Positions 7,301 through 45,640 of a stretch of 64,000 nucleotides of DNA are shown in pieces. The position numbers were made by a program, and so were the translations under genes. Within the stretch, counting starts at the first letter, position 1. Every line of letters starts with the position of its first letter. This DNA comes from a virus. The notes under the pieces are model-generated. The model was not told where the DNA came from, did not search any database, and worked only from the letters and a program-made list of their open reading frames with translations. The DNA is taken from the IMG/VR virus record IMGVR_UViG_3300025141_011586, positions 9,169 to 73,168 of that record, one strand, 5' to 3'.

Positions 7301-8852
7301 AGAGGATATAGATTATATAACAAATATTAAACTTCCTCTGGACGATCTAGGGAGTGGGGCTGCTATTTCTTTCTCTGCCTGCAATGTAGATTCCTCTGCT
7401 ATTAAATTTCCCTTCACTAAAGGGGCGGGAGGCACTAGTGGGGTGGTGGTGTCCGCAAACTGTGAGGGAGCCCCAGTGAGCGCACTGCTTTATCCAGGGT
7501 CTGGTCCTGGGTATTACTTTAAGTTGTCCGCAAATCCTACGATACCTCTTATGATGGAGACAGACCTAAGCAAAACTTATATTACCCCCATAACAACGTT
7601 AGAGAAAGCAATTACCTTATTTGGGCATGATCATGTAATGTCGTTAGAGGTAACTTCTGTGGCAGATAAATCTGAATTAGATTCATCATTCACCACATCT
7701 TTTACGGATAATAAAATATTCTGTTCCCTTATACCTGGAACAGTGAAGGATGATCCCGATAGAAAAGACAATGATTTTATTAGTGAGTACCTCGCAGATT
7801 ATGAAATAATCACTGATGAGACTAAAAGGTTGGACGCTTCTATAGAGGCAGGCTTATTAGCTATGCAAATCAATATCCACAAAGATGATCCTATAAGATC
7901 TTATCTTTCTGATTACGTGGACGAGGCGGAAGGTACTAAGGCATGTTCCATGAGATTTAAGAACATAGATTTCAGAAATTTCTTAGGGGAAGTGTCTCCT
8001 GCTGAGGGGCACATTGTAGCGAGAGGGCTTGTGCCTAAGGTTTTGGTTTTTGTATTTTCCTCAGGGAGCAAGTTTCTCCCAATACGTGAGGGCTTCTCTG
8101 ATATTATAAGTATTTCTAATGACACTAATTCAAAGCGTAGGTTTGTAAGAGGTATGCCTATAATATCTCACCCTAGTCCTGACACGGCTGGATATGCTTT
8201 GGATAGAACTTTAGTGTTTGATGAGTTCGGAACATATGGTATAGGGCTTGTAGGTCAGCAATATGGAAATTTAAATACTAACAAATTCTTTTTCAAATTT
8301 GATCCTGATAGTTCCAAGTATAAAGATACTTTCTACAAGACTACGGGTGGTGATCATGAAAATGATTATACTGTATGTAGCACGTACACTGGTGACGAGC
8401 CAGCACAAGAAACTCCTATACTAAGGAGGGTGGCAAAAGAGATAATCAATGAAACCTTACGAGCTAAATATTATAGAAAGGGATTTACTTGGTGGGATAT
8501 ACTTAGTCGCCTTACTTTAGGAGAGGTGGGGAGAATGATTAATGATCTACCCCCTGATATATGGAAGGATTTGGCTACAGGTAGATTCACTGGGGGGAAT
8601 AAGATATTTCCCTCCCTGAATTCCGATGATGAGATAACGGGTATAATAACTACGAAACCTTCTGCTGATGATGAAACCATCGCAATGGGGGTGACTGATG
8701 ATCCAGTAGATATAACAGATACCAAGATCATAAAGGCTACCGATAGGTTTGATACTATAGCGAGAAGTGAGGAAGAGCACGGATTACGGGGAAGTGCTAC
8801 CATTTTTGATGCGAATGAAGTAGATGCTGCTTCAACTGATTTAGAGGAGTAA
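4353..8852 (+). CDS. Large repeat-containing putative virion protein (Cys-rich modules, Ile/Asp repeats, GGPVRPTTF repeats)
   Basis: 1499 aa ORF; Pro-rich start, about 33 Cys in the first ~430 aa, tandem repeats; directly upstream of PAAR. Confidence 0.5.
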   Translation: MVDEPIQFGCGEIRPGKRPPKPPPPIPVPPIGVGGGGGGGGGSVPPVPVCPPFCGKKPTRPQPNYGPAWICLTSCRIYCNKHPLWPIPGFWEEGNMCFEEQDCYEGQWTEPVYGPRYYEILPHEWERFLRVQWECSDNKGATGDKRCEVLEGADVLEREALAMIEDPTAAHWKSGLTAQADCRENCHGAYGECVAPVEEEELGFKCDSPSVLHGEPGTCVPCKIDPKDPKCKRWTKNDCENSPECMIGGTIAPPGTVITPGRIGRPEKSVCLPVAVRYCPPPGPITGPGGKMGKTAEPKKIKQQVMACYECSFNHETGKHGLTGRARNNWKDAVDKFGGAEAFGEDWYKSAQDKSRDCDLDPTECKTKCKNKNFDCPDGDKRRGDPDPIPDGWKCLKNLGPPHCVQCFLDGSDPDCLFDEIEECELTCKDAPIFTGNDPIIDLKTFKTVEIDPLVTFKEVDPVKVQDKTFGDISLKDILIKALPIGPTLGDRTIKDLLIGNVPLTPTGIIFTGNDIQDILISAIIDLSPTGISIGDIMLKDILLGAIPPGIILGERRIRDIYIPYIPPGIIIGGETIKDILIKARPIGGRSLGDITLRDILVDPKIPGRPWIQIGGITLRDILVDPKIPGFPGIQIGDITLRDILLPHIPPDVSFRRDSVHDLVELEDPTIGGPVRPTTFGGPVRPTTFGGPVRPTTFGGPVRPTTFGGPVVGGDHPEFRDVNQRNIAELDDPTLGGPRAGGDLQEPVPRLGFDPVHRMAGFPKEVGSPLPGLGDDVRRSPYSKAGGQATRIRDQVISVPDLAGKLSFGEKEIDSGHIYHTRYTFTGDAPKDVNLNTKPTEINGKYLDIFNDNVTPVVKYFIDRQGEYKGPWHESIIFALITENKHILNSINQNLLYVFDNLAYANDLKIAPEIFHNIIVKKLISKRIEEFDSSFYLSMYEKQKDNRIIQIIKAPDPIDNYKVALGMIAEEAIPADPDKYGGEEDIDYITNIKLPLDDLGSGAAISFSACNVDSSAIKFPFTKGAGGTSGVVVSANCEGAPVSALLYPGSGPGYYFKLSANPTIPLMMETDLSKTYITPITTLEKAITLFGHDHVMSLEVTSVADKSELDSSFTTSFTDNKIFCSLIPGTVKDDPDRKDNDFISEYLADYEIITDETKRLDASIEAGLLAMQINIHKDDPIRSYLSDYVDEAEGTKACSMRFKNIDFRNFLGEVSPAEGHIVARGLVPKVLVFVFSSGSKFLPIREGFSDIISISNDTNSKRRFVRGMPIISHPSPDTAGYALDRTLVFDEFGTYGIGLVGQQYGNLNTNKFFFKFDPDSSKYKDTFYKTTGGDHENDYTVCSTYTGDEPAQETPILRRVAKEIINETLRAKYYRKGFTWWDILSRLTLGEVGRMINDLPPDIWKDLATGRFTGGNKIFPSLNSDDEITGIITTKPSADDETIAMGVTDDPVDITDTKIIKATDRFDTIARSEEEHGLRGSATIFDANEVDAASTDLEE
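6134..6283 (+). repeat. 66-bp-period imperfect coding tandem repeat (ITLRDILVDPKIPG)
   Basis: tataaccctacgagatatt recurs at 6134, 6200 and 6266. Confidence 0.85.
6364..6481 (+). repeat. 27-bp perfect coding tandem repeat x4.4 (GGPVRPTTF)
   Basis: ttggaggcccagttcgaccaaccacat at 6364, 6391, 6418, 6445, plus a partial copy. Confidence 0.95.
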
Positions 8853-9145: not shown

Positions 9146-9249
9146 CAAAAAATAAATTTTATTTTCATTTGTTCTATTACAAAGCTAAATAAATATGAGA
9201 ATTACCGAGGTAGTCTCATACATATTTCTAGAAATACAGGAGTTTAATT

Positions 9250-19619: not shown

Positions 19620-19640
19620 CTTATATCACTATAATACACT

Positions 19641-22229
19641 ATGCAATATTATCAGGAACTCCTTGAAAGCTTTGATAAGTTAAAGAAGAGGAAGTTCAAG
19701 CTTACGATAATGGAGCAAGGGGGCAATGCAGAAGCTCAGGCTCAAGCTGCGCTGGAGGCGGCGAAGGGTGGCACCCATGATACCCCTGTTGAAATAGGAG
19801 CAACCAAGAATGGCAGTCCCATCAGAGGGTATGTATCATCGGAGGGAGCTGTGTTGGTTGTGGCTCCCTGGCCAAGAGGCGGAGTAAGGCAGAAGAGGGT
19901 AATTGATGCGCCTCCGCCAAATGGGACTGGCCAAGTAATACCTGACGTGTGGAAAGAGTTTTTAACATTTTTTTCAGGTGATGAAGAGGCTGCTCCTGTT
20001 GAGGGTGAGGAGCAGGAGGTCTTTGGTGGAGGGGCTGCTCCAGGGGATACGATTAGGACTATGTTAGAGTCTGGGAGCCAGAAAATAAGGGATAGGCTTG
20101 GTGACTGGTTCCTAGGTATGAATAGATTATCTGGAAATCTGTTCGATAAGTTAGGGCCTCATAAAGATATTCTAGGGACTATCCCTGGAGGTAGTGCAGA
20201 GGGATTTGCAGGGTCCTTTACTGGGGCTGCGGGGAGATCAGTAGAAAGGCAGCTTGTCAATAGTAAGAGAGTTGTTCGAGATGAGGAGGGCAGGTTATCA
20301 AGGCTAGGTGCAATGGACCCAGTAGATCTAGCGGTTGGAGCTAGTAGGCTTCATAACTTATTATCCAAAGCTAGCTTAGATAAGATATCCGAGTCGGAGG
20401 CTCTGGAGTTGAGATCCAATATGGCTTTTAACGAAGATGGGTCTGTCTTCCTGAGAACGGGAGGTCCTAATGAGGGCTTGCTGTTCAAAGACAATGGGAG
20501 AGCTATAACAGCCGCTATGAGGGTGGCAGAAGACAGGGGTAATTTTAAATTTGACGTGCTCCCCTTGAAGGCGGCGACCGCAGGCATATCTTCCTGGAGA
20601 GGCAAGAATTTAGAAAGGGTTTCAACTATTCGAATGCTTGCCAAGAAATGTATTGGTGCTAGAGAGATGGGGATGGAGGTTGAGCACCCCCCTCAACCCG
20701 TAGCGTGTGCAGCTCTTCAGAGAGAGGTGGGAGAGTTTGTAGGGGAAGCTCACAAGTGGAGAGAAGCTCATCAATGGGCCAGAGGTTTTGAGTTAGGTGA
20801 TTCTGCAATTAGAGCAGAGGACCAAGAGATTCTTAGATCCATACAGAGCACTGGCATCCAAGGAGAGGGCATAGCTGATATGGTCAGAGGTATCTTCCAG
20901 TTGTCCAAGGAGAGTGATGATTTGTTGGATGCGGATATGATAGTTCCAGTCGGAGCAATCACTGGAGGGGGGAGAAGGGCAGATGTTAATGCTATCTGGG
21001 TAGACGATGAAAAGTGTGGCAAGGCGAGAGATGGTTTGTTGCGGAAGGGGTTCTCTGAGGAGGACATCGATAATAATCAAATGATACGGAGAATGAGTGC
21101 TAAAGAGGCCTTTGAGAATAGCACCGCTCTCAGGGATGATTTCCTAGCGGTCGAAGGACTGCGTGATGCAAACTCAAAGGTGTGCGTTCACGGAACAGGA
21201 CTGAAGCACTACGAGCATGGGCTTGGGAATCCAAAAATTGGAGAACTTGAATTTAATAAGGTAGATGAAGTTCTTGGGGGGGCTATAGATGCGAGTGAAC
21301 CTCATTGGGCAGAGATGCGAGAACACACCTATAGTGAATTGGGTATGGACGAGGTAGCGCAACAGGCAATGTTAGGTGTGCATAAATCGATAAAGGATAT
21401 TGATGATAGAGTTAGAGATTTGCCTGCGAATGCGACAGTTTCCGATGAGGAGGGAGGCATCTTAACTACTAATCATAACGCCTTACAGAATTTTGCGAAA
21501 CGTACGTTAGATGATATTTTAGATAACACCACTGTCGGTGAGTTGTTCCCTAAAGGTACCAACGAAGATGATAGTAGGTCTGAGTTATATAGCCAATTAA
21601 ATACCCTGATGGGAAAGCAAGGCGGGGAAACTACATTAGATACTCCCGAAGGTGAAGAGAGAGCACGAGAGCTTATCTCTAGATTCCTAAGACAGCGATA
21701 TACTATGAAACGAGTAGCGCAGGAGAACGATGGAGAGAGAAGCGGGGGAGCTGCGACTGATTATCTGGCGGTTAACACTTTCCTAACAGGTGGATCAATT
21801 AATAATGGGGACAGTGGGGATTTTAGATCCATCGCTGATGGTGAATTGAAATACTTTAGGCATAATGAGGTTCTGGAGGTGGTTAAGGCATTCAGGAACG
21901 GGAGGAGCTATAGGGGCATGACAGTCTCTATACCTAACACAAACTCATTTACAACGAAGCTTGTTCTTGATGGGAATAAAGATACTTATGTTAGCTTTGG
22001 TGCTGAGGGTCAGTCTAGTGAAACGGTAGACGGAGGCTTCTCTAGGAATACTAGATTCGTTACTCATGCATCTGGAGGTCTATTGAATGAGATTGCAACG
22101 CCTAAATCAAGGTCAGCAAGTGTTCCTGAAGAGGTTAATGCTGATGCTCATGATCCAATAAACAATGTTATTGAAGAGTATCTAGAGAATCAAAGAGATA
22201 TTCTATATAAGATTCTCGAAGCTAGGTAA
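19641..22229 (+). CDS. Large hypothetical protein (possible internal virion protein)
   Basis: 862 aa; N-terminal MQYYQELLES; TATAAT 5 nt upstream of ATG. Confidence 0.6.
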   Translation: MQYYQELLESFDKLKKRKFKLTIMEQGGNAEAQAQAALEAAKGGTHDTPVEIGATKNGSPIRGYVSSEGAVLVVAPWPRGGVRQKRVIDAPPPNGTGQVIPDVWKEFLTFFSGDEEAAPVEGEEQEVFGGGAAPGDTIRTMLESGSQKIRDRLGDWFLGMNRLSGNLFDKLGPHKDILGTIPGGSAEGFAGSFTGAAGRSVERQLVNSKRVVRDEEGRLSRLGAMDPVDLAVGASRLHNLLSKASLDKISESEALELRSNMAFNEDGSVFLRTGGPNEGLLFKDNGRAITAAMRVAEDRGNFKFDVLPLKAATAGISSWRGKNLERVSTIRMLAKKCIGAREMGMEVEHPPQPVACAALQREVGEFVGEAHKWREAHQWARGFELGDSAIRAEDQEILRSIQSTGIQGEGIADMVRGIFQLSKESDDLLDADMIVPVGAITGGGRRADVNAIWVDDEKCGKARDGLLRKGFSEEDIDNNQMIRRMSAKEAFENSTALRDDFLAVEGLRDANSKVCVHGTGLKHYEHGLGNPKIGELEFNKVDEVLGGAIDASEPHWAEMREHTYSELGMDEVAQQAMLGVHKSIKDIDDRVRDLPANATVSDEEGGILTTNHNALQNFAKRTLDDILDNTTVGELFPKGTNEDDSRSELYSQLNTLMGKQGGETTLDTPEGEERARELISRFLRQRYTMKRVAQENDGERSGGAATDYLAVNTFLTGGSINNGDSGDFRSIADGELKYFRHNEVLEVVKAFRNGRSYRGMTVSIPNTNSFTTKLVLDGNKDTYVSFGAEGQSSETVDGGFSRNTRFVTHASGGLLNEIATPKSRSASVPEEVNADAHDPINNVIEEYLENQRDILYKILEAR

Positions 22230-22755
22230 ACCAGAAATCATTATCTAAGTCTAGCAAGTCTTTAAATTTATATATTATATATTTATTAAAGATTAGATGT
22301 TTATATTCTTTATTTGAATATAGAGTTATATCATCAACAAGTTGATTATTTAATATTGCTAATATCTCATTTCTATCTTGTTGCCATATAATAATAGATG
22401 GGACTCCTGCTCTCTGTGAATCTTTTTCACATTGTTTTATAAAAGTGTAGAATGCAGACCGATCATTGAACAGGCTGCTCAGGTTCTCTTTGTTGTAACC
22501 CTTTTTACACTCGACGATAAACCTAAAGTTTTTGGGAGTTACTAGATCACCATGAATCTTTAAATATTCAGGGAGAGCATGTGTTGTAGCAAAGGCTCCA
22601 CTCCCAGGAGTACGGCAGAATTCCTTGGTTTCAAACCTACTGTTGAGAAATTTACAAATTTTTCTTTCGAAGGATTGCCCTTTAGCCCTGCTGTTGACCC
22701 TCTTCTTAGGCTTTAAAGCCTCTAGATCACAATTGTCTTTTATTTTTTTCGACAT
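22222..22755 (-). CDS. Holliday junction resolvase (Hjc/PD-(D/E)xK type)
   Basis: NSRAKGQSFER, RTPGSGA, GDLV, FIVECK motifs; likely start 22755. Confidence 0.85.
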   Translation of the reverse strand: MSKKIKDNCDLEALKPKKRVNSRAKGQSFERKICKFLNSRFETKEFCRTPGSGAFATTHALPEYLKIHGDLVTPKNFRFIVECKKGYNKENLSSLFNDRSAFYTFIKQCEKDSQRAGVPSIIIWQQDRNEILAILNNQLVDDITLYSNKEYKHLIFNKYIIYKFKDLLDLDNDFWFT

Positions 22756-22760
22756 CAATC

Positions 22761-22767
22761 TATTATA
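22761..22767. promoter_or_regulatory. Bidirectional -10 element (TATTATA) between divergent leaderless genes
   Basis: TATTAT 5 nt before ATG 22772 (+); TATAAT 6 nt before ATG 22755 (-). Confidence 0.55.
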
Positions 22768-22771
22768 GCCT

Positions 22772-23059
22772 ATGCCAGAGACTGTTAAATTAAATATTGA
22801 CGGATGGAAAATTCGTCTTGACGAAAGAAGTAGAGGTCGCATGAAATTTCAAATAAAGTTAAATAAGGAAGAGACAGAAGCTTTCAAAGCTTTTACTGAC
22901 ACTGTAAAGCCTGAGGAGGTTCCTCTTGACGATTTTGTGAAGAGTATATTTTTAACAGGCATTGAATCCATGAACAAGAAGTTAGTGGAGATGGTCCAGA
23001 AATATGCCGAAGAGCATAAGGACGAGTTTAATCCCTCTGGAATAGAAATTGTAGAGTAA
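22772..23059 (+). CDS. Hypothetical protein (possible ribbon-helix-helix-like)
   Basis: 95 aa ORF coupled to the next gene. Confidence 0.55.
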   Translation: MPETVKLNIDGWKIRLDERSRGRMKFQIKLNKEETEAFKAFTDTVKPEEVPLDDFVKSIFLTGIESMNKKLVEMVQKYAEEHKDEFNPSGIEIVE

Positions 23060-23367
23060 TGGACGAAAATATTATTTTCTTGGACAAGGAGAACCAGATC
23101 AATAAGGTCACCCGCGATCAAAAAAAGTCTGGGGAGAAAGTTAGGATCTTGTTCACATCTATGTGGGACGAGTGGTCATCTAATCTTGTGGAGAAGCTAA
23201 AGGGCTATAGAAAACAGGCAAAGTTATATGTGATTAATAGCTTTACAATGCCCCATTCTTTTGTTATATTCAAAACAAAGAGAGTGCCCTATCTCATCAC
23301 ATTAAACGGAGATAGAGTGTATAAGGAAGGATATCTACCAAACATTTATAAAGAACTTGGGTGCTGA
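23059..23367 (+). CDS. Thioredoxin-fold protein lacking CxxC
   Basis: ILFTSMWDEWS in place of WCxxC, and a later VP (cis-Pro) motif. Confidence 0.5.
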   Translation: MDENIIFLDKENQINKVTRDQKKSGEKVRILFTSMWDEWSSNLVEKLKGYRKQAKLYVINSFTMPHSFVIFKTKRVPYLITLNGDRVYKEGYLPNIYKELGC

Positions 23368-23699
23368 CCAGTAACCTTCTCGATATAGTTTGATATCTTT
23401 TCATTGTATTTTTTGTTTTTTGTGTAGAGAAGTTTCAGGTTGTTTAGTATAATGGTCGTGAAGAAGTTGAAAGCCTTGCCCTTCTGAGGGTTGAAGTTCT
23501 TCAGCGTCTTAAGTATCAAAACAAAACACTCCTGTTTAGCATCATCCTTATCGACATTGAAGCCGAAAGAGTCTATAATATTGGAAATGAGTTTATCGAA
23601 CATGCTCATCAGCTCCTCCTCATTGGTTTTCTTATCCTTGAGGTAAGCTTTGATCAGTTTTTCAAATCTTTTATTATCTACATAATGCTTCTTAACCAT
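23346..23699 (-). CDS. Late-transcription sigma factor (T4 gp55-like), short
   Basis: KHYVDNKRF start and NFNPQKGKAFNFFTTI motif typical of gp55; start 23699. Confidence 0.75.
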   Translation of the reverse strand: MVKKHYVDNKRFEKLIKAYLKDKKTNEEELMSMFDKLISNIIDSFGFNVDKDDAKQECFVLILKTLKNFNPQKGKAFNFFTTIILNNLKLLYTKNKKYNEKISNYIEKVTGQHPSSL

Positions 23700-23703
23700 A
23701 CCA

Positions 23704-23710
23704 TATAATA
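23704..23710. promoter_or_regulatory. Bidirectional -10 element (TATAATA) between sigma gene and polymerase part 1
   Basis: TATAAT 4 nt before ATG 23714 (+); TATTAT 5 nt before ATG 23699 (-). Confidence 0.55.
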
Positions 23711-23713
23711 GTA

Positions 23714-24721
23714 ATGTTTGAACTAGAAAGACTTTACAGTGGATCCAGCACAACAACCTCCTGTGAAGGTTGCTCTATTCTTAAGAATTCTAGCAAGCCT
23801 TTTCACGCTCATATGGATCATGAAGACCTACCTGCTTCAGATGTTCTCTTCCTCTCCGACTCCTATAAGTGGAACGGATATGAAAAGACAGCGTTCAAAA
23901 AGGAAGAGATAGCTCTGTTCCAGGGTGGGCTGTCAGGATACTCAGGGTTTACATGGACCACATCTCCATCAGTAAAGTGCCCCGCAGTTAAGGAGGCAGA
24001 TATGTCCCCCTCTAACATGAAGATTTGCAGGGAGTATCTAACAGATACAATACGCCACGTAAACCCTAGGCTAATCTTTGTTTGTGGCAACCTTGCAATG
24101 AAGATGCTAATCAAGAAGAGTGGCATCAGCTCCAAGCGAGGTAGGTGCTTCATGTATGAGGGCATACCAGTGGTCCCCTTGTTCCACCCACAAACTGTTA
24201 TCAATGAACCTCGTCATAAGTTCTTATTTGATACGGACATAAAGAATTCAATCGATAAGTATATCCTTAACAAGGAGGTATCACACAGCTTTGATTACAA
24301 GGTTATCATGTCTTATGAGGACTTGAATGAGTTTTGTTCCGAGTTAATAGACACCTCTGAGACAATTGCCTGTGACATTGAGACCACAGGGCTGGACTTC
24401 CTGAGGGATAAGATGATGACTATAGCCTTCAGTCTTAAGGATAAGGGGTGGGTTCTGCCTATTGATCACAAGGAAGTGGAGTGGGAAGATAGTATGAAGG
24501 AGAGTATTCTTAGGGCTGTCTCTGAGATCCTATCCAACAAGAGGAACAAGAAGGTATTTCACAATGCTAAGTTTGATCTTAAGTTCTTGAAGCAGTATGG
24601 TATAAAGGTGGAGAATGTATGGGATACAAAATTGATGCATCATCTCATCGATGAGAACACTCCAAAGAGTTTGATGGAGCTAGTGAAGATCTACTTTCCT
24701 AAGGAGTTGGAGAGCTTTTAA
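23714..24721 (+). CDS. polA: DNA polymerase A part 1: family-4 UDG-like domain plus N-terminal 3'-5' exonuclease (ExoI, ExoII)
   Basis: CEGC..KCP..CREYL..PRLIFVCGNLA..PLFHP (UDG fold); ACDIETTGL, VFHNAKFDL, WDTKLMHHLIDE (exonuclease). Confidence 0.88.
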   Translation: MFELERLYSGSSTTTSCEGCSILKNSSKPFHAHMDHEDLPASDVLFLSDSYKWNGYEKTAFKKEEIALFQGGLSGYSGFTWTTSPSVKCPAVKEADMSPSNMKICREYLTDTIRHVNPRLIFVCGNLAMKMLIKKSGISSKRGRCFMYEGIPVVPLFHPQTVINEPRHKFLFDTDIKNSIDKYILNKEVSHSFDYKVIMSYEDLNEFCSELIDTSETIACDIETTGLDFLRDKMMTIAFSLKDKGWVLPIDHKEVEWEDSMKESILRAVSEILSNKRNKKVFHNAKFDLKFLKQYGIKVENVWDTKLMHHLIDENTPKSLMELVKIYFPKELESF

Positions 24722-25010
24722 TCCTCAAGACTCTCACACCCTCACCTGGAGCAGCCTCGCCCGTTTTTGGATCGACTTTGGAAAAACCTGACCAGGGTTG
24801 AGCCCCAACCCAAGGCTTTTCAGGATCCATGGCACGTTCTGTGTGGCGTAATCGCGCAGCCTTAGCTCTGGCCTTCTTCCCAGGCCTCCCTTTGGATGCG
24901 GTTGATGCCTTCCCAATATAGCCACTAGAAGATGTACGATGTCCTGGGCCACCTCCAGCGGTGATCTCTTTTAGCAGCAGTTCAGTTATTCTCCCGTAAA
25001 CTTTATTCAT
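24699..25010 (-). CDS. Small basic hypothetical protein inserted within the polymerase locus
   Basis: 103 aa; MNKVYGRITELLLKE N-terminal motif shared with other phage proteins. Confidence 0.65.
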   Translation of the reverse strand: MNKVYGRITELLLKEITAGGGPGHRTSSSGYIGKASTASKGRPGKKARAKAARLRHTERAMDPEKPWVGAQPWSGFSKVDPKTGEAAPGEGVRVLRIKSSPTP

Positions 25011-25393
25011 TTTTGTCTCGGATGCTCACCAGCGTCCCACTGTTGTTTAGTTTTCGCCGCTCTCGCTGCTTTCTCGGCCTTCTTCGCTGCTGCCGCCTTC
25101 TCTGCTGCCGTCTTCTCTGCTGCCGCCTTCTCTGCCGCCGCCGCTGCTGCCCTAGCTTTCCCCCCAGGAATTATTCGGGACAATATCCTTTTCCCACGCT
25201 CTATTGCTGGATCGAGATTAATGGTAAGCTCATATAACACTTCTGCCATTCTTTCATAATTTTTATTCATTTTTACTTCCTTTATCCCGTGCTTTGCTTT
25301 AACCTGCATCACACAACGTTCATGCTTCGAGTCCTTTTTGGGACCTGTGGCTTTATGGCACACAGCCCAGGGATTTACTTTTCTTTTAGCCAT
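25007..25393 (-). CDS. Small basic Ala/Lys-rich protein inserted within the polymerase locus
   Basis: 128 aa; NPWAVC..HERCV N-domain, internal MNKNYERMAEVLYE motif, AAAEK repeats. Confidence 0.65.
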   Translation of the reverse strand: MAKRKVNPWAVCHKATGPKKDSKHERCVMQVKAKHGIKEVKMNKNYERMAEVLYELTINLDPAIERGKRILSRIIPGGKARAAAAAAEKAAAEKTAAEKAAAAKKAEKAARAAKTKQQWDAGEHPRQK

Positions 25394-25409
25394 ACAACTT
25401 CTCTTTCCC

Positions 25410-25418
25410 TATTATATA
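25410..25418. promoter_or_regulatory. Bidirectional element TATTATATA driving polymerase part 2 and the antisense insert
   Basis: TATTAT 6 nt before ATG 25422 (+); TATAAT/TATATA on the - strand upstream of ATG 25393. Confidence 0.5.
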
Positions 25419-25421
25419 CTC

Positions 25422-25901
25422 ATGCTCACTGTCAACAATCCTAAAAATTTCGACTGGAGTAGTATGTCCTTACATGATTGTGCTAAGGGCAACGCTCTGG
25501 ATGCTTATTTCACTCTGAAGCTCTTCCATATATGCGAGGAGAAGCTACAGGAGTATGGGATGCTAGGATTATACGAAAATCTTATGGCTCCTGCGACAGA
25601 GGCATTTAAGGATATGGAGTATGCAGGGTTAGATGTGTCTCAAGAAAAGTTGAAGACGGTAGGGAAGGAGTTGTTTGAAAAGAATGTAGATCAAGCTGAT
25701 TCTCTTTATGCTTTCAAGCAGGTAAATAAGGAGGACAACCTGTCCTCTAATAACCATTTGATTGAGGTGCTGTATACCAGAGAGGGGGGGTTTAATCTTT
25801 ATCCCCCTGACAAGACTGCAAAGGGATCTCCCTCCGTGTCTGCCCCCACGTTGAAGCTATTATTAGAACAAATTGAGAACGAGTTGAGGACCAGGGAATG
25901 A
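25422..25901 (+). CDS. polA: DNA polymerase A part 2: ExoIII helix plus thumb N-terminal half
   Basis: GNALDAYFTLKL (ExoIII-like), MEYAGLDV, NLSSNNHLIEVLY, KTAKGSPSVSAPTL match the PolA thumb region. Confidence 0.85.
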   Translation: MLTVNNPKNFDWSSMSLHDCAKGNALDAYFTLKLFHICEEKLQEYGMLGLYENLMAPATEAFKDMEYAGLDVSQEKLKTVGKELFEKNVDQADSLYAFKQVNKEDNLSSNNHLIEVLYTREGGFNLYPPDKTAKGSPSVSAPTLKLLLEQIENELRTRE

Positions 25902-26983
25902 CCAAGTGGAGACACAGAGATGAGAGTAAGAAGATAAGTAAGTGGAGAGTTTCCGAACTTACTACACCCGCCCTCAAGAGTGCTAGAAATTTTGTGAAAC
26001 AATTACTCGACCTTCGCAAATCTGAGAAGCTATACAAGACGTACATACAGGGGGTCAGGAAGGCCGCTAAATTTAACGGGTGCGACAAGATCTATGTGGA
26101 CTACAAGCTCGATGGCACCATCACAGGGAGGCTCTCATGCACAGCCTACACTGCTCAGGAGAGTAAGGGAGTTTCCTTTCACACTTTACCTAGAGAGACA
26201 GAGAATAATATCCGTAGCATCTTTGTAGCACCTGATGGATACAAGTTTATAACCGTGGATTACAGTGCGATGGAACTGCGTGTCCTAGCTCATGTTGCAA
26301 AAGAATATAACATGCAGAAAGCTTTCATCGAGGGGCGAGATCTCCATAGTTATACTGGGAGCCTACTCTTTAACAAGAAAGAGGGGGATGTCACAAAAGA
26401 GGAGAGACAGATAGCTAAGACAGTTTCTTTCCTTATCGTCTATGGGGGAGGAGCTTTTAACCTCGCTGAGACTATGGGCATTCGACTGAAGAGGGCTGAG
26501 AAGATCATCGAGGCATACAAGAATGTCTACCCAGGGATCTTTAAGTATATGGAGTTCATTGAGGCCTTTATCAAGAAGAACGGTTACGCTTATTCAATAT
26601 TCGGTCGGAGAAGGAATCTCCCTGACGTTGCCTCTAGGAATCGTACCGTAGCCAACAAGGCTATAAGACAGGGGATTAATTTCACAATCCAAAGCACTGC
26701 TTCGGACGTTCTGGTCTGTTCGCTTCTAGGTATTGTTGAGAAGTTTAAGCAGAAGGGTATGAAGGCTAGGATTGTTAGTACGGTTCACGATAGTATTGAA
26801 GCTATTGCCCCTGCCGATGAGGTAGACGAAGCTTGTCGTATCATCTATGATGAGATGGTGAACTATCCGTATATTAAAAAGACTTTTGGTATTGATTTTT
26901 CTGTCCCGCTAGACATAGAGATTCTAGTGGGAGAATCTTTCGGAGATGGGGAGGAGATAAAAGTATGCAACGTAGAGCCTTAG
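25898..26983 (+). CDS. polA: DNA polymerase A part 3: palm/fingers catalytic domain
   Basis: TITGRLS, DYSAMELRVLAH (motif A), RQIAKTVSFLIVYG (motif B), VHDS (motif C). Confidence 0.93.
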   Translation: MTKWRHRDESKKISKWRVSELTTPALKSARNFVKQLLDLRKSEKLYKTYIQGVRKAAKFNGCDKIYVDYKLDGTITGRLSCTAYTAQESKGVSFHTLPRETENNIRSIFVAPDGYKFITVDYSAMELRVLAHVAKEYNMQKAFIEGRDLHSYTGSLLFNKKEGDVTKEERQIAKTVSFLIVYGGGAFNLAETMGIRLKRAEKIIEAYKNVYPGIFKYMEFIEAFIKKNGYAYSIFGRRRNLPDVASRNRTVANKAIRQGINFTIQSTASDVLVCSLLGIVEKFKQKGMKARIVSTVHDSIEAIAPADEVDEACRIIYDEMVNYPYIKKTFGIDFSVPLDIEILVGESFGDGEEIKVCNVEP

Positions 26984-27918
26984 TAACAGGGGGATGTGGA
27001 TTCATAGGAGCCCACTTAACCGAGAGACTGCTTAAAGAGGGGTGGAAAGTAGAAGTAGTAGATAATTTCCGCGAGGGCGATCCCGACAAGCCTCTTCCTG
27101 AAGGCGTTAAAGGCGCTATTCTCTGGCCTATGGATTTTACTGATTCAGTCATACTAGATTCTATAAGGGATAAAAAGTATGATATGGTTTTTCACTTAGC
27201 TGCAATCCCTAGAGTGGCCTACTCAGTAGAGAATCCAGTGGAGACTACAGATAATAATATTCTAAAGACGGTGAAGTTATTTCACGCTTGTATAGGAAAT
27301 GTTAAGAAAGTAATATTCTCATCATCATCATCTGTATATGGCGGTATTTTTGATGGGACAACAGTAATTAAACCTGTCCAGGAGTATATGGCTAGACATC
27401 CCAAATCTCCTTACGCTTGGCAGAAAGCAGCAATAGAAGATGCTGCTGGCATATTCTCTGACCTGTATGAATTAGATATTATTTGCCTTAGATACTTCAA
27501 CGTCTTCGGCCCAGGACAAGTTGCCGAGTCAGCATACTCTACAGTGGTATGTTCCTGGTGTGACGCAATTAAGAATGGTAAGCCTCTCAGGCTGGACGGC
27601 AATGGTTATCAGTCCAGAGACTTTTGCTACATAGATAACGTGGTAGACGCTAATATTCTAGCGGCTGAAGGTACCGCTCGCGGAGGATGCTTTAATGTCG
27701 CTGGAGGTGAACGAATCCCCCTTATAAGGATACTAGATTATTGTCAGCAGAAGTTCTCTGGACTAGAAGTAAAGGAAGCCCCAGACAGGAAGGGTGATGT
27801 TAGACATACTCTAGCTAGCCTGGAGAAATCTAAAATGTTTTTGAACTACGAACCGAAGGTACTTTTTTGGGAGGGTCTGGCTAAGACGTTTGATTGGTGG
27901 GGTTTAGAGCCTAAATGA
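26965..27918 (+). CDS. NAD-dependent nucleotide-sugar epimerase/dehydratase
   Basis: VTGGCGFIG, FHLAA, SSSSVYG, YAWQK, LRYFNVFGP motifs. Confidence 0.93.
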   Translation: MQRRALVTGGCGFIGAHLTERLLKEGWKVEVVDNFREGDPDKPLPEGVKGAILWPMDFTDSVILDSIRDKKYDMVFHLAAIPRVAYSVENPVETTDNNILKTVKLFHACIGNVKKVIFSSSSSVYGGIFDGTTVIKPVQEYMARHPKSPYAWQKAAIEDAAGIFSDLYELDIICLRYFNVFGPGQVAESAYSTVVCSWCDAIKNGKPLRLDGNGYQSRDFCYIDNVVDANILAAEGTARGGCFNVAGGERIPLIRILDYCQQKFSGLEVKEAPDRKGDVRHTLASLEKSKMFLNYEPKVLFWEGLAKTFDWWGLEPK

Positions 27919-36721: not shown

Positions 36722-36735
36722 ATCTATTATATTTC

Positions 36736-37920
36736 ATGAGTGAAAAATTAAAAATCTTAGTTATCCCCGCTAACGAAGGGGGTTGTGCTTACTACAGAGC
36801 TATTATGCCCTTTATGAAACTACAGGAAGTCTGTCCTGATAGAGTTGAAGTAAGGCTGGACAAGAATCCCTTAGGCCTTGATGAAAAGACGGGCCAGTGG
36901 AAGGACAATTGGGCGTTTGAGAATATGAAATGGGCTCATATTATTGTCGTAAGTAACATCAGCAATTTCGGGGGGAATTACACAGCCAGAGTAATAGGTA
37001 AGGGGAAGGAGTTTAAGAAGTTTGTTCACTTTGATACTGATGATTTACTCACAGAGCTTTACGATGAACACCGCTTGAAGAAACTTTACGAAGAGAAGGG
37101 GTTGTCACAATTAACAAAGCATTTATACTACTCCTCAGATCTTGTAACGGTAACACAATCAAAGTTTGCTGAACGGGTTGAACCTTTTGTTGCCAAGTGT
37201 CTTGCTGTGGTCAAGAACTGCATTGATTATGATTTACCCTGCTGGAATTTGCCAAAAAAGGTAGGGCATAGGCCAATAAGAATTGGCTGGGCGGGAGGCA
37301 TTCATCACGATCCTGATGTAAAAGAGTTTGCTTCGGTCCCACACTTGGTCAACCAGAAAGTGGGACAGGAGAATGTATGGTGGGATTTCTATGGTCATCC
37401 CCCTAAAGGAGATAAAGACGATCCTGATGATTGGCAGGTAGATGTTTGGAAAGGGTATAAGAAAACTCTTTTAGGTGGTTTCAAGGGACATAAAAATTGG
37501 ACAATCCATCACGCCATGGCTCCAGACTCTTACGGTGGGATGTATGCTAACATGGACATAGCAATAGCTCCTCTCCAGATGAATAATTTTAACGATTCGA
37601 AGTCGGATATAAAAGTGGCAGAATGTGGTAGGTATAAGGTGCCTCTAGTGGCCTCTAATGTTGGCTGCTATAATGAGACGATTGAGAACTGGAAAACAGG
37701 ATACCTTATCCCGCCTGGAGCGTCGAAAATAAAGTGGGTCAAGGTCTTGACAAGATTGATCAAAGAGCATGGGTTGAGAAAGCAGATGGGTGAAAACCTC
37801 CATGCTATCACGGAGCAGGATTTTAGTGCTAGAAATGTTGTAGCAAGCAGAATAAATTTGTATGAGGAATGTTTTAAGTTAACGTTTGATCCTAGGGAGA
37901 GAGAAGATGTCGCAGATTAA
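36736..37920 (+). CDS. Glycosyltransferase (GT4-like)
   Basis: GGCAYYR, IGWAGG, DIAIAPL..FNDSKSDIK..E, ASNVG. Confidence 0.88.
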   Translation: MSEKLKILVIPANEGGCAYYRAIMPFMKLQEVCPDRVEVRLDKNPLGLDEKTGQWKDNWAFENMKWAHIIVVSNISNFGGNYTARVIGKGKEFKKFVHFDTDDLLTELYDEHRLKKLYEEKGLSQLTKHLYYSSDLVTVTQSKFAERVEPFVAKCLAVVKNCIDYDLPCWNLPKKVGHRPIRIGWAGGIHHDPDVKEFASVPHLVNQKVGQENVWWDFYGHPPKGDKDDPDDWQVDVWKGYKKTLLGGFKGHKNWTIHHAMAPDSYGGMYANMDIAIAPLQMNNFNDSKSDIKVAECGRYKVPLVASNVGCYNETIENWKTGYLIPPGASKIKWVKVLTRLIKEHGLRKQMGENLHAITEQDFSARNVVASRINLYEECFKLTFDPREREDVAD

Positions 37921-38695
37921 GATAGTTAGTGGGTTTACCCACGGAGGAGGATCAACTCATGCGTATATGAATCTTTGCGACTTGTTCAACGAGAATGGAT
38001 ACGACTGTACGTTCTACGGGCGACACCCTTGGCATCTAGATAAATGTTCTAAAGGGGCACTGATTCAGAATCTCGAACCTGAGATGGATGATACATTTTT
38101 GGTTCATTACTTCAGGATTGATGATATCATCCCGATGTGTAAGAAGATGGTTCTCAGTGTTCATGAGAAGAACATGTTTCCGATAAAGGATGTGGAGTAT
38201 TCCCACTATAATTTTATTCATTACATAAATGATGACCAACGGAAGTGGCAAGCAATCGATCACCCATACCATATTATACCTAACGTCTATGACGATCTGA
38301 AAGAGGAAGAGAAGACAGGTAGTGCTGCTGGTATTATCGGAACCATAGATCGCAACAAGAACACACATGTCTCCATCAGAAGAGCTTTGGATAAGGGATA
38401 CGATTCTGTCCTATTATATGGAGAGGTTACTGACAAAGATTACTACGAGGATAAGGTGAAGCCCTTACTAAATGATAAGGTAGTCCAGATGGGGCACTGT
38501 GGCGATAAGCAAGAGATGTACAACAGTGTGGAGTCCGTGTTTCTCTCCTCCGATAGCGAGGTTGCTCCGCTAGTAAAGGGGGAGTGTAACTTGACTGGGA
38601 CAAATTTTTACGGCAACAAGAATACCGAGGGGTCCGCCTTCCCAGTAGACAGAAAAGAGATCTTGGACATGTGGGTTAAAGCTTTGGAATTATGA
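37907..38695 (+). CDS. Glycosyltransferase (GT-B/GT4-like)
   Basis: HGGGS, IIGTIDRNKN, SDSEVAPLVKGE (ExxxxxxxE-type) motifs. Confidence 0.7.
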   Translation: MSQIKIVSGFTHGGGSTHAYMNLCDLFNENGYDCTFYGRHPWHLDKCSKGALIQNLEPEMDDTFLVHYFRIDDIIPMCKKMVLSVHEKNMFPIKDVEYSHYNFIHYINDDQRKWQAIDHPYHIIPNVYDDLKEEEKTGSAAGIIGTIDRNKNTHVSIRRALDKGYDSVLLYGEVTDKDYYEDKVKPLLNDKVVQMGHCGDKQEMYNSVESVFLSSDSEVAPLVKGECNLTGTNFYGNKNTEGSAFPVDRKEILDMWVKALEL

Positions 38696-39417
38696 TTAGG
38701 ATCCTCACCACCCTTTTCAATGCCGAGGAGTATATCGCTAACTGCCTCGATAGTATCATTAGCCAGGAAGAGAAGGATTGGGTGTGCTACGTTACTGATG
38801 ATATGTCTACAGATTCCTCCGCTGAGACTGTGAAAGAATTTTGTGAAAAGGACTCTAGGATTAAGCTAATCAGGAATAGAGAAAAGAAGTATCAGCTAGG
38901 AAACTACGCTCAGGTGATGGAGCTAGACGAAATAGATGACGAAGACATTGTTATAACTGTGGATGGGGATGACTGCCTCCCTGACCCGAAGGTCTTCACT
39001 AGGGTTAAGGAAGCCTACTCTGATGGGAACACTTGGGTAACCTACGGGCAGTTCGTTCAGTGGCATGGTGAAAAGAATTTGTCTATGGGATTCTCCTCGC
39101 CTCCTGAGGACTTCTCTAAGCTCCGTGAAGCGAGGCAAACGATCTCACACCTTAGGACGTTTCGCGCTTTTTTGTGGCGCAGGATCAAACCTGAGGACTT
39201 CCTGGACGATAATGGAGAGACTATACAATGCGCTGGAGACATAGCGTTCATGTTCCCAATGCTTGAGATGGCAGGAGAGAAAAGATCAAAATTTCTTTCC
39301 GACATAAACTATGTCTATAATCTAGATACCGATCTTAACGTTCACAAAAAAGAGTTAGGTAAGCAGTTGGATATGGCAGTGTTAATAAGGAGTAAGGAGC
39401 CTTACCGAGAATTATGA
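38692..39417 (+). CDS. Glycosyltransferase family 2
   Basis: FNAEEYIANCLDSI, DDMSTD, VDGDD. Confidence 0.9.
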   Translation: MIRILTTLFNAEEYIANCLDSIISQEEKDWVCYVTDDMSTDSSAETVKEFCEKDSRIKLIRNREKKYQLGNYAQVMELDEIDDEDIVITVDGDDCLPDPKVFTRVKEAYSDGNTWVTYGQFVQWHGEKNLSMGFSSPPEDFSKLREARQTISHLRTFRAFLWRRIKPEDFLDDNGETIQCAGDIAFMFPMLEMAGEKRSKFLSDINYVYNLDTDLNVHKKELGKQLDMAVLIRSKEPYREL

Positions 39418-40397
39418 CGCAATTTCACATTAATTACTTGTACCCCCCACTCATAGGACCAGAGATATTTGCTCATAGATTGAGGGGAGCCTTAGAGGGT
39501 AGAGGGTGGAAATTCAGAGATTACTTCCCAGGAGGGAATGGTTTTGATGAGGAGTTTATTAATCTTGCTATTATTGAGGGGCCTTATGTCCGTGGAGCGA
39601 AAAACATCCTTAGGTTGGATGGGTTGTATTTTGATTCTGAAAATCAACTAACGGATAAACTGAACTCTCCTATTTTTAGTTGCTACGACAACTTTGATGC
39701 GGTGATCTTCCAGTCCGAATTCTCCAAGAAAATGTATGAAGCTTTCCGAGGTGAGCGGACCCCTAATTTTATAATACCTAATGGGGTGCCAGAGTATTTT
39801 TCCCCACACACAAGAGAAAATCCTTACATGCATTATCTTAAATCTAAGTACTCTAAGGTATGCATAGCTTCTGCAACTTGGAGGAGGCATAAGAGGTTGG
39901 AGGAGGTGATTGAAGCTTTTAGGGACAAATCCCTAGAGAACGTAGCCTTGGTAGTTCTCGGCGGCGAAGACTATAAACTTTCTGTGAAATCTCTCCCCCC
40001 TAATGTCATTATGCATGAGAATGTTAAGCCTCAGTCCCTGCCCCCCATGTACGTTGCAGCGGACGCTATGATTCATCTAGCGTGGTTAGACTGGTGCCCT
40101 AATACTGTGGTTGAAGCACTAGCCTGCGGAGTCCCAGTCCTATGCTCTCATAATGGTGGCACGAAAGAATTAGTCAAGGATAATGGGGTAGTAATTCAAT
40201 TAGAGGAAACTTATAAGATAGGTGAGAGAGTACCTCTGTATAACCCCCCGAAAGTTGACACTAAACAAATCGTTGCTGGCATTCTAGAAGTCTTGGAGCA
40301 TAAAACAGGGTTTGAGAGGCCAGACCTAAGTATAGAGTCTGTAGCAGACAATTATATTTCTGCCACGCAGTCTATCGACAAAAGTGAAGGGGTGTAA
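39414..40397 (+). CDS. Glycosyltransferase family 4
   Basis: IPNGV, WRRHKRL, PNTVVEALACGVPV. Confidence 0.9.
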   Translation: MTQFHINYLYPPLIGPEIFAHRLRGALEGRGWKFRDYFPGGNGFDEEFINLAIIEGPYVRGAKNILRLDGLYFDSENQLTDKLNSPIFSCYDNFDAVIFQSEFSKKMYEAFRGERTPNFIIPNGVPEYFSPHTRENPYMHYLKSKYSKVCIASATWRRHKRLEEVIEAFRDKSLENVALVVLGGEDYKLSVKSLPPNVIMHENVKPQSLPPMYVAADAMIHLAWLDWCPNTVVEALACGVPVLCSHNGGTKELVKDNGVVIQLEETYKIGERVPLYNPPKVDTKQIVAGILEVLEHKTGFERPDLSIESVADNYISATQSIDKSEGV

Positions 40398-41211
40398 GAT
40401 GGGGTTAGGAGGTCATTTAACCTGGACGGCAGCAGCGAGGGAGATAAAGAAAAAAACAGGCTTGGTATCTGTGCCAGTGAACGGTAACAATATTGTTACT
40501 GATGATATATTCAAGAATAATCCTAACTTCTCTTTTGACACCTCTGACGGGAAAGAAAAAATAATTCTGGATCTAGGAAAACCAGAAACAAATTATTGTA
40601 TTGCTGATCTCCCTGACAGAGCTATTCAAAAAACAGATAAGCACATAATAGAGACTATATGTGAGCATTACGACATACTCGACCCAGAGCTGAAATGCGA
40701 TTTATTTTTTACGGAGGAGGAGCTTGAAAAAGCGAGAGGCTTAATAAAAGATTTGCCTCTTAGATTTTTGGTCATAGAGCCTCATTCAAAAACCAGTTAT
40801 TCAATTAATAGACAATACCCTTTGGATAAATGGCAGAAGGTGGTAAACGAGTTGTCTGAGAAATTTCCTATTGTTCAAGTAGGGGTTTCTGGAAAACGTG
40901 TCCTGGATTCGGTTGTGGACCTGACAGGCCAGACAACTTTTAGGGAAGCTGCTGCTATAATAAGATTGAGTTCGCTTTTATTAAGTAATGAGGGAGGATT
41001 GGGACATGCTGCTACCGCTACAGAAACCAAAGCCCTTATCGTTCTTGGAGGCTACACAGGAGCTAAGATGGTTTGTTACCCTCAGAATATTAATATAGAT
41101 GTTGCGACACACGGACCTTGTGGAATGAAGTCGCATTGTTCGCTGTGTCAAGAAGATTATGAAAATCACAATTATGGTGAGATAGTAGAAAGGGCACTTG
41201 AAGTTTTATGA
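40384..41211 (+). CDS. Glycosyltransferase family 9-like (heptosyltransferase fold)
   Basis: GLGGHL, DLTGQTTFREAAAII, NEGGLGHAA. Confidence 0.82.
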   Translation: MKGCKMGLGGHLTWTAAAREIKKKTGLVSVPVNGNNIVTDDIFKNNPNFSFDTSDGKEKIILDLGKPETNYCIADLPDRAIQKTDKHIIETICEHYDILDPELKCDLFFTEEELEKARGLIKDLPLRFLVIEPHSKTSYSINRQYPLDKWQKVVNELSEKFPIVQVGVSGKRVLDSVVDLTGQTTFREAAAIIRLSSLLLSNEGGLGHAATATETKALIVLGGYTGAKMVCYPQNINIDVATHGPCGMKSHCSLCQEDYENHNYGEIVERALEVL

Positions 41212-41903
41212 AAGAGATTCATATAAAGAATAAGCTAAAGAAAATCGGTATGCCTGTGGATAGCTTATCCTTAGGAGACTTTGATTCTATAGGGCATTTT
41301 ACAGCGTATAAGGATAGAGCTGAGGGAAGTGAATTATATAAAAAGGTAGGTCGATTTTTCAGGCCCAATTATGAACGAGGCCTTTTGATTTACTCCCTCA
41401 TAAAAAAGCATAATTTAAAATCTTATCTGGAGGTAGGGTTCGGGAGAGGATACTCTGCTTTGTGTGCCGCAAAGGCGTTAGAGGAGAACGGCGGAGGCAA
41501 AATAACTACTATAGACCCAGCGATCCACCCACAACAGTGGGAGATGATTCAGCAAGTTTTCCCTAAGCCTTGGGTGGATATGATTACTATAGCCCAGGTG
41601 AAATCTCAAGACTATCTTGCTATGCACAAGGATAAGTATGATTTTATTTACATTGATGGGGACCATACCTATGACGCTGTGAAGGAAGATTGGGAAAACT
41701 GTAAAGATAGATACAATAACTTTCTTTTGTTCGATGATTATCATAAAACTCAGGAGAAGGAAGAAATTCAATGCTCGAAGCTGATTGATGAAATTGAAGA
41801 TGATTCTAAGGAACTTATAATTATGGATCGTCGCATATTTTTTGATGACCGTAGGGTCCCTGATAAGCAAATTGATTATGGACAGGTATTGTTAACAAAA
41901 TGA
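41208..41903 (+). CDS. Class I SAM-dependent methyltransferase (Methyltransf_24-like)
   Basis: LEVGFGRGYS, DFIYIDGDHTY, FDDY. Confidence 0.85.
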   Translation: MKEIHIKNKLKKIGMPVDSLSLGDFDSIGHFTAYKDRAEGSELYKKVGRFFRPNYERGLLIYSLIKKHNLKSYLEVGFGRGYSALCAAKALEENGGGKITTIDPAIHPQQWEMIQQVFPKPWVDMITIAQVKSQDYLAMHKDKYDFIYIDGDHTYDAVKEDWENCKDRYNNFLLFDDYHKTQEKEEIQCSKLIDEIEDDSKELIIMDRRIFFDDRRVPDKQIDYGQVLLTK

Positions 41904-42826: not shown

Positions 42827-42830
42827 ATAA

Positions 42831-43508: not shown

Positions 43509-43509
43509 C

Positions 43510-45593: not shown

Positions 45594-45640
45594 AGAAGGT
45601 ATACTTTATAGACTGCGGTGCGAATATAGGCCAAAGTAAC

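Follow-up and report, generated by a model that had tools for sequence, protein, structure and literature searches.

A UDG-fused family A DNA polymerase apparently divided over three genes in an uncultured marine phage, with a variable antisense insert at the first gene junction

The stretch of DNA analysed here (the window: 64,000 nucleotides (nt), positions 9,169 to 73,168 of IMG/VR virus record IMGVR_UViG_3300025141_011586, which is 73,168 bases long and estimated to be 43% complete) carries the conserved parts of a family A DNA polymerase (PolA) on three plus-strand open reading frames (ORFs), which we call p1, p2 and p3, with two ORFs of opposite orientation, m1 and m2, lying between the first and the second. 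All five were found where an initial annotation made from the letters alone had placed them: p1 at 23714-24721 (+; 335 amino acids (aa)), m1 at 24699-25010 (-; 103 aa), m2 at 25007-25393 (-; 128 aa), p2 at 25422-25901 (+; 159 aa) and p3 at 25898-26983 (+; 361 aa). The end of p1 is overlapped by m1 over 23 nt, m1 and m2 overlap by 4 nt, a divergent spacer of 28 nt (25394-25421) separates m2 from p2, and p2 and p3 overlap by ATGA (25898-25901). The first gene encodes a domain resembling family 4 uracil-DNA glycosylases (UDG) followed by the first three quarters of the 3'-5' exonuclease domain (ExoI D221 and E223, ExoII D288); the second encodes the last helices of the exonuclease domain (ExoIII D27, with Gly23 in place of a tyrosine) and the first part of the thumb; and the third a conserved basic N-terminal extension, the remaining thumb, the palm and the fingers, with motifs A, B and C.

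The assignment of p1 rests on several searches. In Pfam it matches UDG (PF03167; 35.4 bits against a cut-off of 24.3) and DNA_pol_A_exo1 (74 bits, model positions 2-129 of 173). A profile search recovered the family 4 UDG 4zbx (expectation value (E) 1.9e-14) as well as positions 6-136 of the Klenow chain, and a fold search gave the solved single-chain UDG-PolA 9qhs as the best match overall (296 columns), besides 1ui0 and 4zby. Across 67 sequences C17, C20, C89, C105, H158, D221, E223 and D288 are invariant. The four cysteines are those expected of a family 4 UDG, with C89 and C105 aligning to cysteines of 4zbx, and we take all four to be ligands of an iron-sulfur cluster; H158 is the motif B histidine. 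In the alignment Asp49 of p1 takes the place of the motif A glutamate of 4zbx, and it is kept in at least 85% but fewer than 90% of the sequences. For comparison, the UDG catalytic residues of the single-chain enzyme of phage phiLo are given as motif A E53 and motif B H178 (PMC13697223), and published UDG-PolAs are described as having UDG domains that are active in some cases and inactive in others (PMC10201439, PMC13697223).

The second gene product aligns to positions 162-293 of the Klenow chain, or to 159-294 when used as a family profile (E 4.6e-18), and its PHROG match covers positions 805-927 of phrog_17 DNA polymerase, directly after the stretch matched by p1. Its predicted structure is all-helical with a predicted local distance difference test (pLDDT) value of 91. 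The matches listed by Foldseek against the PDB are all Pol I large fragments, but they are weak (E 0.01-0.4, template modelling (TM) score about 0.42), and we therefore rely on the sequence profile as evidence for what p2 is. With p2 as the query, a HMMER search of 1.84 billion representatives returned 176 proteins at E <= 0.001, of which 100 reached E <= 1e-10, nearly all of them 157-181 aa long and aligned end to end; no stand-alone p2 occurs among 50,697 phage records of cultured phages. The aligned set, limited to rows that match 110 or more profile positions, has 119 of them (118 matches and the window p2), and these divide into 91 stand-alone proteins shorter than 200 aa, nine that start at the p2 N-terminus and continue into p3 (two of them probable fragments of single-chain forms) and 19 that lie inside long single-chain polymerases. 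The stand-alone proteins of about 160 aa make up about 90 clusters, and 92 sequences have M1, L2, G23, D27 and T31 without exception. Where p2 begins differs between public gene calls (P0168 and P0171 among them), which give lengths of 145 aa (from Met15, 25464), 159 aa and 187 aa (from a TTG further upstream); the 145-aa call stands on 14 contigs including the source record, whose own call (P0168) starts 14 residues late. We favour the 159-aa protein starting at 25422, because the N-terminus is conserved in the family (M1 and L2 invariant, T3 and W12 near-invariant).

The third gene product matches PF00476 with E 1.9e-80 (271 bits where the cut-off is 34.3, over positions 58-380 of the 381 in the model) and aligns to positions 270-567 of the Bst polymerase chain (E 4e-47), an alignment from which motifs A, B and C were read off. 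Among 57 sequences 76 columns are invariant, including D121, R170, K174, Y182, H297 and D298, residues of motifs A, B and C that comprise the catalytic aspartates and the motif B lysine. One p3 variant of 373 aa (P0184, a member of the 90% cluster of p3) has its first ~60 residues swapped for an N-terminus resembling a single-strand-binding protein, and could be a chimeric assembly or a genuine recombinant. The hallmarks of a family A DNA polymerase (PF00476 with PF01612) are accordingly distributed over three ORFs with stops and new starts, and not carried by a single polypeptide.

How the three products relate to an undivided polymerase can be read from 12 single-chain relatives of 780-1200 aa, on which the p1, p2 and p3 profiles are colinear, in the same order and without loss (on P0145, for example, p1 covers 22-335, p2 344-483 and p3 486-798). 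This mapping places the first cut between ExoII and ExoIII, inside the exonuclease domain, and the second in the thumb. At the p1|p2 cut no residues are gained or missing with respect to the single-chain relatives; the p2|p3 cut is flanked by residues that these relatives lack, about 9 of them closing p2 and about 24 opening p3, which bears out the earlier remark that both sides of this break carry extra residues.

The same cuts recur widely. Scans of IMG/VR gave 109 stretches encoding a p1 relative, of which 80 were kept, and 10 more were reached via p3, making 90 related loci; all three parts are held by 77 of them (L002 and L014 are the same contig). In every one of these 77, at protein identities of 44-68%, p1 stops at the homologous place and p2 and p3 proceed from new starts, mostly in another frame, and p1 adjoins p2-p3 in every locus that holds them all. 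The p1|p2 junction consists of a one-base stop/start overlap such as TAATG in 41 of the 80 loci, of a 7-base overlap in one, and of an insert of 151-2287 nt in the other 38. Of the 69 complete p2/p3 pairs, 68 have an overlap of 4, 8 or 17 nt and one an insert of 537 nt, a count that leaves out pairs cut by a contig end, a locus with a frameshift inside p2 (L021) and L078, where an indel in a run rich in A puts p2 and p3 in one frame and the contig ends within p3. Alone among the relatives, the locus with the 537-nt insert (L091) has a gene between p2 and p3: a sense ORF of 184 aa at 6992-7546 with a P-loop (kinase-like) N-terminus. In the locus with the 7-nt p1/p2 overlap (L089, position 6999), p2 has ATC where the others use ATG or GTG; either an unusual start codon or an error in sequencing could account for this.

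Conservation at the strain level agrees with this picture. Exact copies of the p1, p2, p3, m1 and m2 proteins are found on 4-6 contigs from JGI, ENA and Logan, and three DNA runs of other studies supplied contigs that span, without any indel, the p1 stop, the m2/p2 spacer and the p2/p3 overlap. Among the 40 best-supported of 137 strain differences, 30 of the 36 that fall in p1, p2 and p3 are synonymous (p1 14/16, p2 5/5, p3 11/15), and all three genes are under purifying selection. The view that the three-gene split is natural and no product of decay, already put forward in the initial annotation, is supported by the shared break points of the 77 loci, the invariant catalytic residues and the predominance of synonymous changes. 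A tree of the p2 region is poorly resolved (57 of 116 inner branches are open), so that we claim no order of events; the fused p2+p3 forms are scattered in it, and its well-supported branches force at least three changes.

The proofreading site deserves separate consideration, since the first cut passes through it. The four metal-binding carboxylates, D221, E223 and D288 in p1 and D27 in p2, are invariant even though they are divided between two chains, as had been supposed at the outset, and this is our main argument for a site that would be completed between the chains. The earlier statement that the motifs are intact, however, holds for motifs A, B and C and fails for ExoIII: its aspartate (D27) is kept, whereas the tyrosine four residues earlier is glycine in the window phage, so that the canonical Y-x3-D is absent. 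In the corresponding alignment column, 87 of the 91 stand-alone p2 rows have glycine and four are gapped; the nine rows that start at the p2 N-terminus give seven glycines, one tyrosine and one gap; and the single-chain relatives have tyrosine in 19 of 19. The lone tyrosine in the p2+p3 group belongs to a probable fragment of 258 aa (P0128) that groups with single-chain forms. With glycine in the split forms and tyrosine in the single-chain ones, loss of the tyrosine tracks the first cut.

Family A polymerases are textbook single-chain enzymes, and their exonuclease domain is thought to be necessary for the stability of the enzyme even when it is inactive. We consider it well supported, as far as comparison of genes and proteins can carry such a claim, that the locus encodes a natural three-gene polymerase whose proofreading site would be divided over two chains. 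More broadly, we hold with good confidence that the only recognisable DNA polymerase of this phage is a UDG-fused family A enzyme made from three separately translated genes, and that the antisense insert is accessory to it. The initial annotation had allowed that another polymerase might exist elsewhere in the genome; none was found in five clade records, three of them 99-100% complete, which gave one PolA match each and no match to PolB or Pol III alpha. In the mechanism that we propose, p1, p2 and p3 would join non-covalently into one polymerase, with p2 as the bridge: its ExoIII aspartate would join the metal site that p1 forms, and its thumb helices would go to p3. The stop/start overlaps present in most relatives would couple translation from gene to gene and so yield matched amounts of the three chains, while in the window strain p2-p3 would be transcribed behind a promoter-like element of their own, CTATTATA, into a leaderless or short-leader mRNA.

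Several points weigh against this interpretation. That the products of p1, p2 and p3 physically assemble into one enzyme is a step that we infer; a prediction of the three-chain complex scored 0.88, as compared with 0.86 for a control in which chain 3 had been replaced, and was counted neither for nor against assembly. Proofreading may be weakened or altered, given that the ExoIII tyrosine is lost in every split form. The UDG-like domain of p1, with its aspartate for the family 4 motif A glutamate, is no more than a putative glycosylase. The expression signal of p2 is likewise putative, p2 having no Shine-Dalgarno sequence and an upstream spacer of 28 nt. The strain comparison was made on assembled contigs, in which rare variants and transcript ends are invisible. 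Finally, because the source record is 43% complete, the statement that this is the only polymerase rests on complete relatives.

These points leave room for readings that go beyond ours or depart from it. It is conceivable, though we regard it as rather doubtful, that fission within the proofreading domain was not neutral, and that it brought with it a rebuilt exonuclease site, new conserved basic termini in the thumb that might serve as a DNA- or partner-binding element, proofreading that would depend on association and could thus be tuned or exchanged, and a first junction freed from the reading frame to become a landing site for fast-changing accessory genes. On this reading the new thumb termini would lie where T7 polymerase has its thioredoxin-binding loop.

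Less likely still is that all three products are real proteins that form no single stable enzyme, for example an exonuclease-free polymerase made of p2 and p3 and a separate UDG-like DNA-binding or nuclease factor, p1, which would join it transiently. The loss of the ExoIII tyrosine in all split forms would fit such an arrangement, as would the existence of forms in which p2 and p3 are fused and p1 is separate (P0090, P0101, P0102, P0132, P0125); moreover, the p1|p2 junction takes up whole genes and, in the window strain, a promoter-like element, and p1 and p2-p3 can therefore be expressed apart. However, the invariance of the four carboxylates across the p1/p2 divide is hard to explain without an inter-chain site. 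Furthermore, p1 ends and p2 starts in the middle of a domain with no residues added, p1 has kept its place beside p2-p3, and the last 25 residues of p1, when it is modelled alone, are predicted with lower confidence.

We consider it very unlikely that the pieces are rejoined into one real chain by a self-splicing intron, by a split intein in a fractured gene or by programmed frameshifting. Introns are frequent in phage polymerase genes, fractured genes with split inteins and an intervening gene have been described from marine metagenomes (PMC2677866), and short stop/start overlaps permit frameshifting in principle. Yet no Rfam intron family was detected at E <= 1 in 23500-27100, and the Pfam search at E <= 0.1 gave neither an intein nor a Hint family; p1 and p2 abut without spare residues, and intein halves would need more than the about 9 plus 24 residues of the p2|p3 cut, in keeping with the original impression that neither kind of element is present. 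The 42 of 80 relatives without an insert still keep a stop and a separate start, junction sequences vary and share no common slippery site, and frameshift fusion is ruled out at the 38 of 80 first junctions that carry 151-2287 nt of unrelated genes, often on the opposite strand. That the stops are sequencing or assembly artefacts, or signs of a decaying pseudogene, is scarcely credible: the source is metagenome-assembled and incomplete, and one relative has a frameshift in p2 (L021) and another p2 and p3 in a single frame (L078), but identical cuts in 77 divergent loci, about 90 clusters of stand-alone p2, invariant catalytic residues, mostly synonymous strain differences, indel-free contigs of independent origin across both junctions and exact proteins in several assemblies all speak against it.

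The antisense pair turned out to have no part in the split. The initial annotation had linked the two, but the same cut exists without an insert in 42 of 80 relatives, and of the insert of about 700 nt in the window, 679 nt are missing in a near-identical strain, represented by a contig of 3258 nt (run X5) on which 24721 is followed, after 25 other letters, by 25401. In other samples, too, the insert region varies while the polymerase genes are 97-99% identical. A joint in run X4 skips exactly 260 nt (25001 to 25262) and one in run X6 skips 541 nt. Both skips end at the second copy of a direct repeat (D2) of 37 nt whose copies are 76% identical and 260 nt apart; copy 1 (24978-25014) covers the 5' end of m1, and copy 2 (25238-25274) the start of an internal cassette of m2 at Met42. 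Cassettes of the insert would accordingly be gained and lost between repeated 5' ends.

Neither m1 nor m2 has a Pfam or PHROG match. The basic, low-complexity m1 protein belongs to no family; it is found exactly on 4 contigs, and also as 103-aa variants and in a fused variant of 144 aa (P0195), in which the first 41 residues of m2 are joined directly to m1. The m2 protein consists of this 41-aa N-terminal module and the cassette that starts at Met42. A homology search with m2 found only itself and P0214, in which the same 41 residues carry another tail, and the N-terminal 41 residues alone retrieved the same two; scans of the viral and metagenome loci gave no match to m2, and the Atlas no usable one. 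The 4-nt overlap of m1 and m2, the reversed GC skew and the open frames kept in several variants make it most likely that both are real genes. The insert differs in composition from the rest of the window (GC content 0.497 and GC skew -0.25, versus 0.429 and +0.16), and it has neither flanking repeats nor terminal inverted repeats at its flanks.

The cargo at the first junction of relatives is of other kinds. It includes antisense ORFs of about 166 aa resembling lipoproteins (in inserts of 486-542 nt), antisense basic ORFs, a sense coiled-coil ORF of 62 aa, a membrane ORF of 91 aa and an ORF of 262 aa. From the variation between strains and the differing cargo in relatives it follows that the insert is an accessory region, which neither belongs to the polymerase nor caused the split. 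Accessory genes of varied kinds collect at the first junction, a hot spot that behaves as ordinary intergenic space, and the antisense pair came later, as a passenger that varies from strain to strain; our guess, made with low confidence, is that m1 and m2 encode small moron-like accessory proteins. The lipoprotein-like antisense ORF, of about 166-207 aa, occurs in junction 1 of many loci (L015, L019, L022, L028, L030, L047, L048, L051-L054, L068 and L018); it has a signal peptide with a lipobox-like start and a glycine-rich stretch, and looks like a lipoprotein moron. A common N-terminal motif of m1, the Met42 cassette of m2 and the antisense ORFs of relatives, noticed by eye, was discarded: an all-against-all phmmer comparison gave no link to m1 or m2, and an ungapped matrix and a small hidden Markov model ranked them no higher than other ORFs.

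Since the insert removes the stop/start overlap, p2 in the window strain needs a signal of its own. The divergent m2/p2 spacer (25394-25421) holds CTATTATA at 25409-25416, 5 nt before the p2 ATG, as part of a promoter-like TAGCCA-17-TATTAT. The -10 box that had been proposed ahead of p2 is thus present (TATTAT, 25410-25415), in a sigma-70 promoter scan that as a whole did not rise above chance (9 sites versus 5.9 +/- 2.5 expected). It gains support from the enrichment of CTATWATA, which occurs 22 times in the window as against 6.9 +/- 2.9 expected, a number reached in none of 100 shuffles. Five genes without a Shine-Dalgarno sequence have this motif 2-5 nt before their ATG, at 19641, 22772, 23714 (p1), 25422 (p2) and 36736, the copies lying at 19629-19636, 22760-22767, 23704-23711, 25409-25416 and 36724-36731. 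CTATWATA may therefore be a phage promoter that gives rise to leaderless or short-leader mRNAs. The best site of the sigma-70 scan, a candidate promoter by consensus match upstream of p1 (23551-23579, +), reads TCGACA-17-TATAAT and agrees with 11 of 12 consensus positions. An RNA library (X20) contains four 151-nt pieces in p3 as well as low-complexity matches to 25082-25139 at 90-95% likeness, and counts neither for nor against transcription.

Polymerases encoded in pieces are known from other phages. T7-like cyanophages such as S-SBP1, S-TIP37 and P-SSP7 have a PolA split into an exonuclease and a polymerase gene (Czernecki et al. 2023, PMC10201439; Sullivan et al. 2005, PMC1079782; clade B in PMC12695635). 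This split resembles ours in that the enzyme belongs to family A and comes from separately translated genes with no intron or intein, and in that assembly was there deduced from structure prediction and conservation; it differs in having one cut, between the exonuclease and polymerase domains, in podoviruses and with no UDG domain. The polymerase in the window, by contrast, has two cuts (ExoII/ExoIII and thumb), three genes, a fused UDG-like domain, a myovirus-like setting and a lost ExoIII tyrosine. Single-chain UDG-fused PolAs are found in N4-like, SPO1-like and SP15-like phages (phiLo, YerA41; PMC10201439, PMC13697223). With these the window polymerase shares the order of a family 4 UDG-like domain, 3'-5' exonuclease and polymerase, its three profiles following one another on relatives of 780-850 aa, whereas theirs is one polypeptide with Y-x3-D kept, and the word "split" is absent from PMC13697223.

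The two-piece PolA of OM43 phages, with a small ORF without known homolog between the pieces and with the involvement of an intron left undecided by its authors (PMC10580990), is likewise a marine phage PolA interrupted by a small homolog-less ORF. It consists of two pieces, in podovirus-type phages related to Zobellviridae, and no cut without an insert is reported there; in the clade studied here, insert-free relatives and strains show the cut to be independent of the insert. Outside family A, the split family B polymerase of PhiKZ (DNAP-N and DNAP-C) forms a stable 1:1 complex by cryo-electron microscopy, as reported in a preprint (bioRxiv 10.64898/2026.09.30.755723), and an archaeal split PolB is known (Kelman et al. 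1999, cited in PMC1079782). Both are replicative polymerases made from separately encoded pieces, but in two pieces and of another polymerase family. Our literature search, which did not extend to supplements that could hold such cases, turned up no report of a PolA encoded by three genes, nor of one that is cut within its exonuclease domain.

A clade of abundant marine phages that use a PolA cut through the exonuclease domain and the thumb would provide a natural test of which connections of the Pol I fold are dispensable. It would also offer ready-made split points for engineering and a proofreading metal site completed between two proteins, and from the perfect match between split and tyrosine loss comes a concrete hypothesis that lends itself to bench work. 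For annotation, the arrangement would explain the apparently "truncated" polymerase, the short orphan protein and the "exonuclease" met with in such phages. The gain and loss of antisense cassettes at the level of strains suggests, moreover, that gene fission can create a new site for accessory genes.

The source is a tailed, uncultured, marine myovirus-like phage with a large replication module. The window encodes a major head protein, a head protease, a tail sheath, a late sigma factor-like gene and a RusA-like resolvase, together with an SbcCD-like nuclease, a ribonucleotide reductase, a DnaB-like helicase and a UvsX-like recombinase, and the sequencing runs that contain its DNA are labelled marine. 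A DNA search of cultured phages gave no match, and p3 reaches a best identity of 33-36% with them. Directly upstream of p1 lie two minus-strand genes, the late sigma factor-like one at 23346-23756 (phrog_234), whose longest ORF has a TTG start at 23756 and overlaps the start of p1 with its 5' end, and the RusA-like resolvase at 22222-22842 (phrog_244). On the other side, a nucleotide-sugar epimerase gene (26965-27918) overlaps the end of p3, and a long run of genes further downstream (36736-48528, two ORFs of which were scanned) includes a glycosyltransferase and an aminotransferase-like gene. The epimerase/glycosyltransferase region may represent a sugar or DNA modification module adjoining the UDG-like polymerase.

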